A program made the position numbers and the translations under genes. Positions 772-15,456 of a stretch of 15,456 nucleotides of DNA are shown here, piece after piece (the stretch's first letter is position 1; every line of letters starts with the position of its first letter). The stretch comes from a virus (lineage: Duplodnaviria; Heunggongvirae; Uroviricota; Caudoviricetes): the IMG/VR virus record IMGVR_UViG_2698536485_000022; one strand, 5' to 3'. The notes beneath the pieces are model-generated. The model was not told where the DNA came from and ran no database searches. It was given only the letters and a program-made list of their open reading frames with translations.

Positions 772-1806
772 ATGCCACTAAAAGCGTCACTTAACGGAAA
801 AGAAATTCATTCTTTTGAATTTAACTCTCAGGAATGGGAATATCTTAAACAGACATATAAAAGCCAGTCTTTGTTTATGTCGTGCTGTGGTCAGCCTGGT
901 ATACCTAAAACAAGCAAACTTAATAACTATTACTTTGCACATAAATCCAAAAGCGATTGCCTGTATGCGAAAGAAAGCGCAGAACATTTATATCTCAAAT
1001 TCTTAATCGCAAAATTAGCCAGTGATGCTGGCTGGTCAGTTACTACCGAAAAACAAGGGGTGACCCCAACAGGAGAACAATGGATTGCCGATGTGTTTTG
1101 TACCAGAAATAACGCGAAACTGGTTTTCGAAGTACAGTTATCACCGCAAAAAGACGATGAATTTAAAGAACGTCAAAAACGATATATCGCATCAGGAGTC
1201 CGTGCACTGTGGTTGCGAAAGTTACGTAAAGGAAGTAAAGAGCATGGTGGGAATATATACCATAGCTACGATTTACCTGTTTTTGGTGTGCGTCAGAATG
1301 AAAATGGGGACTTGTATCTACCACAGTTTGGGATTAGTGTCAGGGAGTTTATCGCGGGTGTTTTTGCCAGAAAGCTATTATGGTTCCCAAAGGTTGGGGA
1401 TGTGCTGACTGCAAAAATAGAATCGCGAGTTACAAAATGCTGGAGATGTAAGAAACGAACTGGAATTATCAGGGGTATTTCTGTTTACAGTAAGTCCGTA
1501 TTCGTCAAGTTTTTATCTTTTCGTGATTCTGATGTCAAAGAACTAATAGCCATTCACGTGGATAACAAAAAACTCTGGGCGGCTGGAATTGGTACTGTTA
1601 AGGACAGAGACAGTGATTGTTATTTATCTAACTGTTGCATACATTGTTATTCGCTTATAGGAGATTTCTTTTTATTAGAGGTTTTCGACTACCCGAATGA
1701 TAAACAAAAGATAATGATAGAATTTACTTTTACTTATGCTAGCAATATGAAAATCTTATCCAGCGAGTGGGTATTTGATGGTAAAAAAGCTGAAATGTTT
1801 TTCTGA
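772..1806 (+). CDS. CoiA-like PD-(D/E)xK nuclease-family protein with Cys-rich C-terminal half
   Basis: 344-aa ORF from ATG 772. Motif series YFAHK ... ESAEHLYLK ... IADVFC ... LVFEVQLS ... RYIASGVRALWL matches what I recall for CoiA-family nucleases (D ... E-x-Q catalytic pattern). C-terminal half has CWRCKK and CCIHC clusters. Visibly AT-rich compared with the phage backbone. Confidence 0.55.
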   Translation: MPLKASLNGKEIHSFEFNSQEWEYLKQTYKSQSLFMSCCGQPGIPKTSKLNNYYFAHKSKSDCLYAKESAEHLYLKFLIAKLASDAGWSVTTEKQGVTPTGEQWIADVFCTRNNAKLVFEVQLSPQKDDEFKERQKRYIASGVRALWLRKLRKGSKEHGGNIYHSYDLPVFGVRQNENGDLYLPQFGISVREFIAGVFARKLLWFPKVGDVLTAKIESRVTKCWRCKKRTGIIRGISVYSKSVFVKFLSFRDSDVKELIAIHVDNKKLWAAGIGTVKDRDSDCYLSNCCIHCYSLIGDFFLLEVFDYPNDKQKIMIEFTFTYASNMKILSSEWVFDGKKAEMFF

Positions 1807-2319: not shown

Positions 2320-3186
2320 TTAATTAATAGCGTCTTTGCTCTGAAGTACAGCAAATGCCATTAATACCTCTAAAGTATATCGTCTATAAAACTTAACGAA
2401 TCCAACATAAAAAACATAGACGAAGAAAAAGCTAAGTAGCGTCGAAATAGAAATATAAGACACCGCCCCGCCTTCTATAGCACGATAAATTAATGTTAGA
2501 AATGATATCCAAAATGTAATTACAAATACTAAACAAATATTTCTGCAAAAACCATATAATGCAACATAGTTTTGAATTTTTGTTTGATGTTGATTAGAAA
2601 ATTCATAGACGTAATGATAAGCCAATCTGAAAAGATCATCATGAAGACCTGTCCTGATGTTTAATAATTTATCGTCTATTCTGAATTTTTTTTCATAACC
2701 TTCTTTGATCATTAGCCATGTGGTATTAGCTAATTGAAATGGCAATGATTGTGAATAACATAGTTTTTGAGTGGCGTAATCCCATGGTATTATCGGGAAT
2801 AACATCACTTTGATTATGCAGTATTTTATTTTTCTCTTTGTGTCTTCGTTCTGTTTGTCACTTGATGGTGTTAAGACGTTTTTTTTGTCATCTGATAACT
2901 TATTAAATAGATATTCTGACGGATATTGCAATTCTTCGTTCATATATTTTTCAATAAAAAATGCGGATGTGATAGATATAAAGTGTCCAGCTATGTAAGA
3001 TATGATTACTATTGAACCATAGTTCAAAATGCCAAAGATTTGACTTTGACCTCTGAGCAATTCAGTTAAGTCAATAACAATATCTAGATCGAATGTCAAA
3101 CCACAGAAATACATTAACAGGATAAAAAATCCACCTGGTATTAAATATCCAAGAAAGTCATAGAATGAGAATGGATTTTGATTCAT
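2320..3186 (-). CDS. multi-pass inner-membrane protein, AT-rich cargo gene, function unknown
   Basis: Track ORF 2320-3210 (TTG) trimmed to ATG 3186, preceded by GGAGAG. 288 aa with at least four helix-length hydrophobic segments (FLGYLIPGGFFILLMYFCGLTF, IFGILNYGSIVIISYIAGHFISITSAFF, ICLVFVITFWISFLTLIY, ISISTLLSFFFVYVFYVGFV). Strongly AT-rich. Confidence 0.7.
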   Translation of the reverse strand: MNQNPFSFYDFLGYLIPGGFFILLMYFCGLTFDLDIVIDLTELLRGQSQIFGILNYGSIVIISYIAGHFISITSAFFIEKYMNEELQYPSEYLFNKLSDDKKNVLTPSSDKQNEDTKRKIKYCIIKVMLFPIIPWDYATQKLCYSQSLPFQLANTTWLMIKEGYEKKFRIDDKLLNIRTGLHDDLFRLAYHYVYEFSNQHQTKIQNYVALYGFCRNICLVFVITFWISFLTLIYRAIEGGAVSYISISTLLSFFFVYVFYVGFVKFYRRYTLEVLMAFAVLQSKDAIN

Positions 3187-11208: not shown

Positions 11209-11724
11209 ATGAGAATTACACCACCCCATCTGCAGCCAGTTTTATCCAGGGTTAAACGTTTTGTTGAACGAATGCCGGAAGGCGCAACACTGACCCAGAT
11301 ATCACAGAAAGTGCAGGCGTACAGTCTACTGAATAAAAGGGATAAGGAGATACTCATTGGCATTATCCGCGACAGTGGACTTCTGGTCGTTGCGAATGAT
11401 GGAAGAACTACAACGTTACATCATCCTAAATTTGGACATCAGGCAGTAAATAGTGAAATACCAGTAAAAACAGAGGAACCCGTTGTGATTAAAAAGACCG
11501 TTACTCCGGATGAATTACGCAGGCATGCTGAGGAGCTGATCAGGGCTGCGGAAGAAGCAGAGAAGAAATTTAATGATCGTGCGGAAATTAAAAAGCAACT
11601 GGATCCTCTGAAACTGGAAATCCTCCAGGCGTATGGAATGGCAAGTCGTAAATTTGATGAGTTTGTTGATGCTATGGCGGATATGGGGAAAGCGGTACAG
11701 AAACTGAAACAGATTGTGCTGTGA
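11209..11724 (+). CDS. hypothetical phage protein (171 aa)
   Basis: ATG 11209 with GGGAGG Shine-Dalgarno. Charged coiled-coil-like C-terminus. No family recognised. Confidence 0.55.
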   Translation: MRITPPHLQPVLSRVKRFVERMPEGATLTQISQKVQAYSLLNKRDKEILIGIIRDSGLLVVANDGRTTTLHHPKFGHQAVNSEIPVKTEEPVVIKKTVTPDELRRHAEELIRAAEEAEKKFNDRAEIKKQLDPLKLEILQAYGMASRKFDEFVDAMADMGKAVQKLKQIVL

Positions 11725-12723: not shown

Positions 12724-12740
12724 TTTTGTGGAGAAAGTTG

Positions 12741-13121
12741 ATGCGTGATATTCAGATGGTTCTTGAACGCTGGGGGGCATGGGCGGCAAGTGGTAACACC
12801 GGGGTGGACTATTCTCCGATCGCTGCCGGATTCAAAGGACTTTTACCATCTGCCACTAAACCACGTCCGGCCTGCTGCGATGATGACGGACTTATCATTG
12901 AAAACTGTCTTGCTCGTCTGAAGCAGAAAAAACCTGAGGAGTATTCGCTTCTCATTGCTCATTATTTGTTGCGAATATCAAAAAGACAGATAGCCAGGAC
13001 GAGAAAGAAAAGCGAAAAAGCAATACGAATTGAGATGCAGATAGCCGAAGGGTTTATTGACGGATGTTTGTCTGTGCTGGGGGTAAGACTGGAGATGGAC
13101 GACTGGCTGCTAAAAAAGTAA
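12741..13121 (+). CDS. late-gene antiterminator Q (QuuD/QuuQ type)
   Basis: 126 aa from ATG 12741 with GGAG Shine-Dalgarno (MRDIQMVLERWGAWAA ... AAGFKGLLP ... CCDDDGLIIENCLARLKQ). Followed by a terminator. Confidence 0.75.
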   Translation: MRDIQMVLERWGAWAASGNTGVDYSPIAAGFKGLLPSATKPRPACCDDDGLIIENCLARLKQKKPEEYSLLIAHYLLRISKRQIARTRKKSEKAIRIEMQIAEGFIDGCLSVLGVRLEMDDWLLKK

Positions 13122-13190
13122 AAAATGATTAGTGCGGTCCGCAAAAAGTATGTCAGTATGTTAAGAGTGGTTACTTCGCCACACAGCTTA

Positions 13191-13214
13191 AACCCGCCGC
13201 GAGCGGGTTTTTTT
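13191..13214 (+). terminator. tR'-like intrinsic terminator downstream of Q
   Basis: AACCCGC-cgcga-GCGGGTT followed by seven T. Confidence 0.7.
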
Positions 13215-13336
13215 ATGGCTGAAATCGGTCCAGTACAGTAAACGTGCTGGTGGCGGTGAATACCTGTCTTTCAGCTTGCCGGCTTTTTCGACAAGAGTTA
13301 TTGGTGTGTCACGTTAACCGGAAAAGGGAAAAAGAC

Positions 13337-13871
13337 ATGCTGAAACAGCAGGATATGACAGAAACCGCCAGAGTGGTGTTTAATGAATTAAGCGTCACCG
13401 AACCGGCGACAGTCGGGGAGATTGCGCAGAATACTTACCTTTCACGCGAACGCTGTCAGTTAATACTGACCCAACTATCAGCGGGGTGAACTGGAAAAGC
13501 CACATCACCAACTGGTCAGCACATACAGTGAGCTGAACCGGCAGTATACGGAACTGCTGAGTGAATATAAAAATTTGCGGCGGTATTTCGGTGTGACGGT
13601 GCAGGTGCCGTACACCGATGTGTGGACGTATAAACCGGTGCAGTACTATCCAGGGAAACATCCGTGCGAAAAACCGGCAGAAATGTTGCAGCAGATAATC
13701 AGCGCAAGCAGTCGTCCGGGAGACCTGGTTGCAGATTTCTTCATGGGGTCGGGGTCGACAGTGAAAGCAGCGATGGCGCTGGGACGTCGTGCAACTGGCG
13801 TTGAACTGGAGACTGAACGTTTTGAGCAGACGGTGCGGGAAGTACAGGATTTAATCATTCGTAACGGATGA
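13337..13871 (+). pseudogene. remnant of a DNA methyltransferase gene (N-terminal 50-aa ORF plus out-of-frame C-terminal fragment)
   Basis: ORF 13337-13489 (frame 2) overlaps a frame-0 reading frame open from 13470 to 13871. The latter encodes YYPGKHPCEKPAEMLQQII ... DLVADFFMGSGSTVKAAMALGRRATGVE, typical of the C-terminal part of N4/N6 methyltransferases. No DPPY-type catalytic motif is present. Confidence 0.5.
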
Positions 13872-13911: not shown

Positions 13912-13987
13912 GGCCCTTTAGCTCAGTGGTGAGAGCGAGCGACTCATAATCGCCAGGTCGCTGGTTCAAATCCAGCAAGGGCCACCA
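13912..13987 (+). tRNA. tRNA-Ile (anticodon CAU, ileX/ileZ-like); tRNA-Met not formally excluded
   Basis: 76 nt: GGCCCTT acceptor stem, TAGCTCAGTGG D-arm, anticodon loop CTCATAA (CAT at 13945-13947), T-loop TTCAAAT, 3' ACCA. Close to the E. coli ileX sequence as I recall it. Confidence 0.85.
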
Positions 13988-13988
13988 A

Positions 13989-14054
13989 CCGCCACTAGCT
14001 CATCAGGAAAGAACGTCACCCTGTGCGAGATTCGGAGTCCCCGGTGGCGGTCCA
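13989..14054 (+). other. tRNA-like remnant (7-bp acceptor-type stem plus TCCA tail, no intact anticodon or T arm)
   Basis: CCGCCAC (13989-13995) pairs perfectly with GTGGCGG (14044-14050), followed by TCCA. Interior begins TAGCTCA like a D-arm but is too short (66 nt) to fold as a cloverleaf. Confidence 0.3.
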
Positions 14055-14067
14055 TTATCGGTATTCT

Positions 14068-14144
14068 GCGTTGTTAGCTCAGCCGGACAGAGCAATTGCC
14101 TTCTAAGCAATCGGTCACTGGTTCGAATCCAGTACAACGCACCA
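14068..14144 (+). tRNA. tRNA-Arg (anticodon UCU)
   Basis: 77 nt: acceptor GCGTTGT/ACAACGC, anticodon stem ATTGC/GCAAT with loop CTTCTAA (TCT at 14102-14104), T-arm ACTGG-TTCGAAT-CCAGT, 3' ACCA. Confidence 0.85.
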
Positions 14145-14548
14145 CACCACACTTATCTGCCCTGACTCTCTTTTGCGGGCTTTTTATTACAGGAAAGACA
14201 CCGGACAGTGAAATGTTAAATGCCTCACAATTCAGGCAGTTGACTGTTGCCTGACATGCTGAGCGTTTGTTAAAAAAATCCTGCATGATGAATCCCCCTG
14301 AGCGGCGGGGCATAATGACAGATGTTTGGTTGCGTATTGTATAGGCAAGTTGCGGATTCTGTCTGGTCATTGCAGAATTCACCGGGAGGCACCCGGCATC
14401 ATGCTGTATACAGAGATTAGGCATATATCCAGGCTTCTCATCGCAGGAGCCTTTTTACATGCAAAAAAAAGCCCGAGTGGGTTCGGGCAACAGCATGAGA
14501 TACTTGCATTGTCATTTTTATCGTGTGGATTTTAACCAGGGTTTATAA

Positions 14549-14667: not shown

Positions 14668-15456
14668 ATGGCATTTAAACACTATGACGTGGTCAGGGCG
14701 GCGTCGCCGTCAGACCTTGCGGAAAAGCTGACACACAAACTGAAAGAGGGCTGGCAGCCGTTTGGTAGTCCGGTGGCCATAACCCCTTATACCCTGATGC
14801 AGGCGATTGCAGCAGAAGGTGATGTGGTGGTCAGTGGGGCAACTGAGCCGGATTGGTACTACGTCATCGTACTGGCCGGGCAGTCCAATGCCATGGCTTA
14901 CGGTGAAGGGCTTCCGCTGCCGGATTCATACGATGCTCCGGATCCGCGCATTAAACAGCTGGCGCGCCGCAGTACAGTGACGCCGGGCGGGACTGCCTGC
15001 AGATATAACGATATTATTCCGGCCGACCACTGCCTGCATGATGTGCAGGATATGAGTACGCTGAATCATCCGAAGGCAGACCTGAGCAAAGGGCAGTACG
15101 GCTGTGTCGGCCAGGGGTTACATATTGCCAAAAAACTGCTCCCGTATATCCCGAATAACGCGGGGATCCTGCTGGTACCATGCTGTCGTGGTGGTTCGGC
15201 ATTTACCCAGGGCGCGGAGGGGACATTCAGTGCGGACACGGGGGCCAGCCAGGATTCGGCGCGCTGGGGTGTGGGTAAACCGTTATATCAGGACCTGATT
15301 GCGCGCACCAAAGCTGCATTACAGAAGAACCCGAAAAATGTGTTGCTGGCGGTGTGCTGGATGCAGGGAGAGTTTGACATGAGCGCCGCCACCCACGCAC
15401 AGCAACCTGCGCTGTTTACAGCCATGCTGATACAGTTTCGTGCTGACCTCTCCGTG
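14668..15456 (+). CDS. NanS-p-like sialate O-acetylesterase (DUF1737-like N-terminus plus SGNH hydrolase), 3' partial
   Basis: ATG 14668 with GGGGAGG Shine-Dalgarno; open to the window end (263 codons, not in the ORF track because it has no stop). Contains VIVLAGQSNAMAY (GQSN esterase motif). Confidence 0.75.
   Translation, partial: MAFKHYDVVRAASPSDLAEKLTHKLKEGWQPFGSPVAITPYTLMQAIAAEGDVVVSGATEPDWYYVIVLAGQSNAMAYGEGLPLPDSYDAPDPRIKQLARRSTVTPGGTACRYNDIIPADHCLHDVQDMSTLNHPKADLSKGQYGCVGQGLHIAKKLLPYIPNNAGILLVPCCRGGSAFTQGAEGTFSADTGASQDSARWGVGKPLYQDLIARTKAALQKNPKNVLLAVCWMQGEFDMSAATHAQQPALFTAMLIQFRADLSV

Follow-up and report, generated by a model that had tools for sequence, protein, structure and literature searches.

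The tRNA genes of lambdoid (Stx-type) prophages are grouped in a cluster downstream of Q and a methylase gene. Two forms of this cluster are the closest relatives of the locus described here: the ileZ-argN-argO cluster, already known and annotated in phage records such as that of Stx2a_WGPS2 (AP012537.1), and the ileZ-Lys(UUU)-Thr(UGU)-Gly(UCC) cluster found in further lambdoid prophages of E. coli, vB_EcoS-689R5 (ON470583.1) being one example. In tight polycistronic tRNA clusters of E. coli, the RNase P cut at a downstream tRNA sets the 3′ end of the tRNA upstream of it. The helix that RNase P recognizes consists of the T stem stacked on the acceptor stem, and a minihelix that retains an acceptor stem stacked on a T stem-loop, with a 3′ NCCA, serves as a substrate. 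A comparative paper reported that the number and sets of tRNAs differ between Stx2 subtypes (PMC7366253). Partial and non-canonical tRNA genes are a recognised category that annotation pipelines miss or miscall (PMC9897764), and most of the partial genes described are terminal fragments left by att-site integration or CRISPR activity (PMC9897764, PMC10111431).

We analysed a 15,456-nt stretch of Caudoviricetes DNA (IMG/VR record IMGVR_UViG_2698536485_000022), referred to here as the window, in which the cluster, that of an E. coli prophage, holds two tRNAs rather than three (CAU, UCG and UCU). The 80 nt that separate the two tRNAs are made up of a single A, a 66-nt element and a 13-nt spacer (Table 1). 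The 66-nt element is very probably a dead tRNA gene, derived from the middle tRNA of the lambdoid prophage cluster, closest to its Lys(UUU) version, and inert. It is unannotated in RefSeq and in the GenBank phage records that we inspected, and searches of the literature on ileZ/argN/argO, Stx2c tRNAs and truncated tRNAs returned no open-access paper describing it, so that the cluster is known while the remnant itself has neither a paper nor an annotation that we could find.

Table 1 Features of the tRNA cluster in the window (A1, alignment of the element with intact middle tRNAs; R1, covariance model of the middle tRNA family).
Feature	Position	Strand	Basis
tRNA, anticodon CAU, Ile2 (lysidine) type, ileZ homologue, intact	13912-13987	+	ARAGORN, Rfam, RefSeq
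1-nt spacer (A) from the ileZ CCA to the first base of the remnant	13988	+	Sequence, alignment A1, allele list
tRNA gene remnant (probable pseudogene), Lys(UUU)/argN lineage, 66 nt, without anticodon arm	13989-14054	+	Family model R1, substitution distances; ARAGORN and Rfam silent
Acceptor stem, 5′ strand CCGCCAC, pairs 7/7 with 14044-14050	13989-13995	+	Sequence, R1 alignment
D arm, GCTC/ATCAGGAAA/GAAC, 3/4 pairs	13998-14014	+	Alignments A1 and R1
Anticodon stem, 5′ strand TCACC, partnerless, plus one base	14016-14021	+	A1, pairwise alignments, R1
T arm, damaged, CGAGA/TTCGGAGT/CCCCG, 3/5 pairs, 8-nt loop	14026-14043	+	Sequence alignments, R1
Acceptor stem, 3′ strand GTGGCGG, with discriminator U (14051) and encoded CCA (14052-14054)	14044-14054	+	Sequence, R1 alignment
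13-nt spacer TTATCGGTATTCT, argN-argO cluster type	14055-14067	+	Alignment A1, allele list
tRNA-Arg, anticodon UCU, argO homologue, intact	14068-14144	+	ARAGORN, Rfam, RefSeq

Only two tRNA genes were called by ARAGORN over the whole window, the CAU tRNA and tRNA-Arg(UCU), both on the plus strand. The Rfam tRNA model (RF00005) scored them at 72.5 and 71.4 bits, respectively, against a gathering score of 29, and genomes identical to the window carry them in RefSeq as tRNA-Ile and tRNA-Arg. The pair of flanking genes named in the original prediction, Ile-CAU and Arg-UCU, is thus correct. ARAGORN labels the first gene Met because it reads the anticodon alone. Its body matches K-12 ileX at 68 of 76 positions and keeps C4-G69 and C5-G68, which we take to be determinants for TilS, while pair 6-67 has changed in a compensatory manner. 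Judged by its sequence, this gene is a CAU tRNA with an Ile2-type body, that is, a lysidine-type tRNA and by type a reader of AUA. The downstream gene aligns to the annotated argO of Stx2a_WGPS2 (AP012537.1), and its allele folds into a fully paired cloverleaf with no stem mismatches. The rare-codon identities first proposed for these two tRNAs (AUA for the one, AGA/AGG for the other) therefore hold.

The comparison with the cluster of Stx2a_WGPS2 is close. Order and orientation are the same, as is the place of the cluster, downstream of Q and the DNA methylase gene and upstream of the stx/nanS-p/lysis region; the ileZ genes are identical, the argO genes differ by one base (the discriminator), and the middle element of the window is homologous to argN. 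In contrast to the Stx2a_WGPS2 cluster, the middle gene of the window has no anticodon arm and a body nearer to Lys(UUU), the spacer after ileZ measures 1 nt instead of 9 nt, and the prophage is stx-less. The likeness to the Stx-phage cluster between Q and stx, as initially put forward, accordingly stands for synteny and homology and fails for the stx neighbour. Relative to the vB_EcoS-689R5 cluster (ON470583.1), the remnant lies two substitutions plus indels away from tRNA-Lys and has in common with it the acceptor pair C7-G66 and a gap of 1 nt to ileZ; unlike that gene, it lacks an anticodon arm, and what follows it is an argN-type spacer and argO rather than the Thr and Gly tRNAs.

Read in order, the element is CCGCCAC-TA-GCTC-ATCAGGAAA-GAAC-G-TCACC-C-TGTG-CGAGA-TTCGGAGT-CCCCG-GTGGCGG-T-CCA. 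Its acceptor end is complete, and the perfect 7-bp acceptor-type stem, the D-arm-like start and the TCCA end that had been noticed from the sequence were all borne out by the letters and by the family model. In alignment A1 the element matches, base for base, both argN (Arg UCG) of Stx2a_WGPS2 and tRNA-Lys(UUU) of vB_EcoS-689R5, with near-identity on either side of a 12-nt gap. The junction of the deletion falls at about 14021/14022, and the missing 12 nt comprise the anticodon loop together with the 3′ strand of its stem. Further disabling changes are found in the arms that remain. In the D stem, a G-to-A change at 14013 produces a C.A mismatch, a change that is also present in one otherwise intact Lys allele (L041); in the T stem there are two A.C mismatches, one taken over from the Lys type and one new at 14030, in the pair that closes the loop, and the T loop has gained 1 nt to reach 8 nt. 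Lacking an anticodon arm, such a molecule is unable to decode. The earlier statement that neither an anticodon arm nor a T arm could be folded is thus right for the former, which is deleted, and too strong for the latter, which is crippled rather than absent.

Standard tools pass over the element: ARAGORN made no tRNA call within it, and a search of 131 nt around it (13960-14090) with RF00005 gave no match to it even at E ≤ 10, only noise. A covariance model (R1) was built from 20 distinct intact middle tRNAs with their cloverleaf structure. This family is under tRNA-type constraint, since its members keep 96.9% of cloverleaf pairs and show compensatory double changes at three pairs. R1 scores the remnant at 55.3 bits (E ~1e-12), compared with 101-106 bits for intact copies; its alignment replaces 17 model positions of the anticodon arm by 5 nt and flags the non-canonical pairs in the D and T stems. 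The R1 match, together with the near-identity flanking the 12-nt gap, indicates that the element is not a product of chance. The acceptor stem on its own would not carry this conclusion: chance should produce about 0.78 instances per window of a 7-bp stem with NCCA behind it at tRNA-like spacing, and the window has two unrelated ones (874-949 on the plus strand and 14855-14933 on the minus strand), so that this feature is not significant alone. By alignment, then, the central element is tRNA-like, and the proposal that it is a decayed third tRNA gains support from the base-for-base match, the internal deletion and the additional lesions.

Substitution distances separate the two possible parents. 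The remnant is 1-2 substitutions from Lys(UUU) alleles (two from the main allele and one from L041, which already carries the GAAC change in its D stem) and 4-11 substitutions from argN(UCG) alleles. The suggested comparison with argN therefore identified the right slot, as the alignment to argN of Stx2a_WGPS2 attests, and not the nearest relative. The C7-G66 pair and the single nucleotide that separates the remnant from ileZ are Lys-type traits; the downstream spacer, argO and the upstream methylase gene are of the argN-cluster type. The simplest reading of this pattern is that the locus would be a mosaic, with a Lys-type middle gene inside an argN-type cluster and a crossover close to the 3′ end, GGCGGTCCA, that both types share. 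In one natural allele (L012) the 3′ strand is the argN-type ATGGCGG, which breaks acceptor pair 7; this looks like a crossover displaced inward by a few bases. A search of IMG/VR for an intact ancestor in which the anticodon stem is compensated (TCACC/GGTGA) found none, and the present sequence may accordingly have arisen either by one 12-nt deletion together with an A-to-C change or by two separate deletions, one of 1 nt and one of 11 nt.

We surveyed the distribution of middle genes in 128 clusters sampled by the 5′ 25-mer of the gene (IMG/VR and genome-collection matches, reference loci and the window), a sample that is biased by the search pattern and whose copies are not phylogenetically independent. 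The ileZ-Arg(UCG)-Arg(UCU) architecture accounts for 72 of the 128, and ileZ-Lys(UUU)-Thr(UGU)-Gly(UCC) for 36 and a further 4 partial clusters. The ileZ-remnant-Arg(UCU) architecture, and with it the two-tRNA state, was seen in 14; the remaining two clusters have, respectively, two Arg(UCU) tRNAs (L017) and an ileZ-Arg(UCG) pair with no third tRNA called. Only 3 ileZ alleles were present among 115 copies (112 identical), and argO had 15 alleles in 84 copies, 77 of which are fully paired. The middle gene, with 37 alleles in 128 copies, was fully paired in just 28 of 113 full-length copies; a further 14 copies have the remnant deletion and one a 1-nt deletion. By these allele counts the middle slot is dispensable and clearly under weaker constraint than ileZ and argO, the contrast being large despite the bias of the sample.

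The remnant itself is widespread and uniform. Over a stretch of 321 bp that includes the cluster, the window is 100% identical to many genomes of STEC type (O111, O55:H7, O157:H7), in which just two tRNAs are annotated, and 82-84% identical to Stx2a phages in which ileZ, argN and argO are all annotated. The deletion allele was found in 401 of 5426 complete E. coli genomes (~7%; at least 80% of an 83-nt query covered), was never annotated there, and was at least 99% identical in 389 of the 401; 13 of the 14 remnant copies in the cluster sample are likewise identical to one another. A scan of IMG/VR with a 14-mer spanning the junction gave 120 matches, nearly all of them unrelated, and filtering left 13 true copies among 124 pattern occurrences over all loci collected. 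In a scan of genome contigs, the only two matching stretches came from E. coli and Shigella flexneri records and added no diversity. All 15 matching records of Stx2c-converting phages (LC727876-90) carry the allele upstream of stx2c, unannotated, and the allele is therefore not confined to degraded, stx-less prophages. The upstream flanks of the remnant are of at least three kinds and its downstream flanks of several, from which it follows that the ileZ-remnant-argO block is mobile as a module.

Around the cluster, the genes run in the order Q, methylase, tRNAs, nanS-p-type esterase, holin and lysozyme, and the tRNAs sit between a truncated DNA methylase gene and an STnc100/AgvB sRNA region. 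Genes for stx are absent from this prophage. A terminator-like site at 13190-13210, just past the Q gene, combined with general knowledge of these phages, would place the cluster under Q-dependent late transcription, like its counterparts in Stx phages; a simple scan found no sigma-70 promoter directly upstream of ileZ and no separate promoter for the cluster. The methylase gene has been cut short by an 875-bp deletion relative to the prophage of O111 11128 (junction at 13473/13477), and the hairpin and U-run that follow argO have a predicted energy of -6.0 kcal/mol here, compared with -13.8 to -14.6 kcal/mol in relatives. With a truncated methylase gene and a weakened terminator hairpin after argO, the surroundings of the remnant are, to judge from the sequence, likewise decaying.

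These observations suggest a passive life for the remnant. It would be transcribed passively in a single precursor that also holds ileZ and argO, and the 80-nt structured spacer would be cut away as RNase P and 3′ exonucleases mature both flanking tRNAs, after which the excised RNA would be degraded. Its near-invariance probably comes from its position between tRNA genes that are both useful and highly conserved: as part of a module of ~233 bp it would travel with the two whenever prophages recombine. We see no sign of selection on the remnant itself.

Two facts nonetheless count against an inert remnant. The allele is almost invariant in ~400 genomes and in several flank contexts, which can be read as conservation, and the minimal features of an RNase P substrate (a GC-rich 7-bp helix, the discriminator and an encoded CCA) have been kept 1 nt past ileZ, at the spacing also found in intact ileZ-Lys clusters. 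The remnant might then be active, either as a processing element, in which RNase P cleavage 1 nt after the ileZ CCA would make the 3′ end of ileZ, or as a stable 66-nt, CCA-ended minihelix RNA, possibly a decoy for acceptor-end enzymes or defence toxins. We consider this improbable. The acceptor stem does appear when the transcript of the entire cluster is folded (centroid structure), and the element resembles an RNase P minihelix in its acceptor helix, its discriminator and CCA, and a short hairpin on the 3′ side; its minimum free energy fold has a 3-bp hairpin stacked on the acceptor stem. It differs from such a minihelix in that two of the five T-stem pairs are broken, the T loop is enlarged and ~30 nt of D-arm debris are inserted. 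Retention of the acceptor end is unsurprising, because about 5 lesions spread over 77 positions would all miss the 18 nt of acceptor stem and NCCA with a probability of ~0.26; that figure, and the broken acceptor pair 7 of allele L012, indicate that this end is not specially protected. Folding energy offers no support for a structured RNA, since neither the remnant (z = -0.89) nor the whole cluster (z = -1.08) is more stable than shuffled sequences. Compensatory variation in the remnant is nil, and its invariance is the same as that of the neighbouring spacers within each lineage, so that invariance cannot separate selection from hitch-hiking and recent spread. As for the idea, offered earlier beside that of a decayed tRNA, of a minimal tRNA-like RNA, nothing we found supports a function.

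Other origins for the element are less probable again. Direct descent from argN, the tRNA-Arg(UCG), with the Lys-like bases arising by convergence or gene conversion, would account for a remnant that occupies the argN slot of an otherwise argN-type cluster, with the methylase gene upstream and a 13-nt spacer and argO of the argN-argO type downstream, as well as for the argN-type 3′ strand of one allele. We regard it as quite unlikely against the substitution distances given above, the Lys-type acceptor pair, and a spacer after ileZ that has the 1 nt of Lys clusters instead of the 9 nt of argN clusters. The least credible of the alternatives, which we rate as highly improbable, is that the element is either not derived from a tRNA or is a tRNA fragment that an integrating element left at its att site. 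Such att-site fragments are the commonest partial tRNA genes in prokaryotes (PMC9897764, PMC10111431), which speaks for the second version as the chance frequency of a 7-bp stem with NCCA does for the first, but the family model matches across both ends of the element, and no integrase or island boundary was found at the locus. An origin as an att-site fragment was rejected on structural grounds as well, given that both the 5′ and the 3′ end of the tRNA are present and the deletion is internal, whereas att duplication keeps one end. The element shares tRNA homology, disabling lesions and a mobile-element location with the partial tRNA genes of prokaryotes, and it departs from most of them in that it stands in a tandem tRNA operon and that its deletion is internal, with both termini kept. 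A dead middle tRNA of Lys(UUU) type is thus the reading to which we hold; this is ordinary gene decay and not a new kind of RNA, and no function is indicated by anything found.

The consequences are mainly a matter of annotation hygiene: Stx2c phages carry an unannotated tRNA pseudogene immediately upstream of stx2c, and when Stx phages are compared, a count of ‘two’ tRNAs against ‘three’ reflects decay at a single homologous slot and does not mean that the gene sets differ. Were the remnant a processed RNA after all, it would be a natural minihelix substrate; nothing found points there. Taken over the sampled alleles, the comparison shows a middle slot that is evolutionarily labile, with anticodon switches (UCG, UUU, UCU), stem mismatches and, here, the death of the gene, beside ileZ and argO genes that are nearly fixed. 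This difference suggests that the phages' requirement is for decoding of AUA and AGA.

The intact Lys(UUU) relatives of the remnant have features of their own. They carry an unusual C at position 33, and read U36-A-A-G-U-U41 where the host tRNA-Lys reads U36-A-A-U-C|A41, differing at positions 39-41. The PARIS nuclease AriB cuts host tRNA-Lys at U36-A-A-U-C|A41, and a single change at position 39 abolishes cleavage (PMC12409363). The ancestor of the remnant, which lies outside the window, may accordingly have been an anti-defence tRNA that has since been lost from this lineage. The neighbour of tRNA-Lys in the Lys cluster is tRNA-Thr(UGU), the other prime target of AriB, and its positions 36-41 are the same as those of the host tRNA.

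The position between ileZ and the next tRNA in these clusters, the middle slot, is held by a single tRNA lineage whose members are about 85% identical throughout (IMG/VR loci L007-L126; for example 3104-3180 of the argN-type cluster L002, 2096-2172 of phage vB_EcoS-689R5 (L003), and L017, a cluster with two Arg(UCU) genes). Three anticodons occur within it, UCG (Arg), UUU (Lys) and, at one locus, UCU (Arg), and compensatory changes are found at acceptor pair 7 and within the anticodon stem. Judged from sequence comparison, this lineage is a phage tRNA family undergoing anticodon switching.

Intact relatives of the remnant, the 66-nt tRNA pseudogene between ileZ and argO, are prophage tRNA-Lys(UUU) genes with C at position 33 and the anticodon loop CCUUUAA; the type is present in vB_EcoS-689R5 and about 40 IMG/VR loci, such as L041, an allele with a D-stem change. 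At positions 36-41 the prophage tRNA-Lys reads U36AAGUU41, whereas host tRNA-Lys reads U36AAUC|A41, which is the cleavage site of PARIS AriB (PMC12409363). The gene directly after the prophage tRNA-Lys(UUU) encodes tRNA-Thr(UGU), which alongside tRNA-Lys is a prime target of AriB (PMC12409363), though its positions 36-41, UAAUCA, are host-like. The Lys(UUU)/Thr(UGU) pair may constitute an anti-defence tRNA set of temperate lambdoid phages.

Impairment may affect many of the annotated argN genes, as suggested by their stems and 3' ends. Among the 72 'intact' argN(UCG) copies at IMG/VR loci with argN alleles, about 40 show an A.A mismatch as the sixth pair of the acceptor stem, all but two of these also have a T-stem A.C mismatch, and a few argN(UCG) copies encode the 3' end as UCA rather than CCA. 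ARAGORN nevertheless calls these copies tRNAs.

Over its whole length the window matches, at 100% identity, a lambdoid prophage found in E. coli of bovine and human origin (e.g., NZ_CP020106, NZ_AP042515). This prophage is without stx and adjoins zur and a truncated gene for a dusA-type tRNA-dihydrouridine synthase. Several of its genes are truncated or frameshifted, which marks it, on sequence, as a decaying prophage. Compared with the O111:H- 11128 prophage, the window has an 875-bp deletion in which a small ORF lost its end and a DNA methyltransferase gene about 660 nt from its start, and RefSeq annotates the residual gene (13475-13870) as a pseudogene without its N-terminus. The hairpin downstream of the antiterminator Q gene is a candidate for tR' of the late operon, and, if real, would place the tRNA cluster within the Q-dependent transcript. 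The gene annotated for a pseudouridine synthase family protein would place an RNA-modification enzyme close to the phage tRNAs, with a few genes separating it from the tRNA cluster downstream.

Features in and around the tRNA cluster (window coordinates unless stated)
Feature	Position	Strand	Details
tRNA-Lys(UUU) and adjoining tRNA-Thr(UGU)	L003 2096-2250		phage vB_EcoS-689R5
7-bp stem, then NCCA	874-949	+	tRNA-like spacing
'pseudouridine synthase family protein'	~11271-11723	+	prophage-encoded; RefSeq
Antiterminator Q gene	~12740-13120
Terminator-like hairpin	13190-13210	+	8 bp, then T run; ~70 nt downstream of Q
DNA methyltransferase region with deletion	13246-13870		junction 13473/13477; vs O111:H- 11128 prophage
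Hairpin 3' of argO	14159-14185	+	4-bp stem; -6.0 kcal/mol
STnc100 sRNA family	14254-14462	+	Rfam, full-length; 175.2 bits (gathering score 47)
AgvB (anti-GcvB sRNA family)	14464-14523	-	Rfam; 56.6 bits (gathering score 56)
7-bp stem, then NCCA	14855-14933	-	tRNA-like spacing

Neither of the two further stem-NCCA sites in the window received a tRNA call from ARAGORN or Rfam, and their number fits chance (~0.8 expected per window).

In related clusters, argO is followed by a GC hairpin of 7-8 bp and a U run (-13.8 to -14.6 kcal/mol). Its window counterpart is degraded, and termination behind the tRNA cluster may therefore be leaky there. The STnc100 match begins about 110 nt downstream of argO; converging on it is the AgvB match, which is barely at threshold and has a terminator-like hairpin of its own at 14488-14471.
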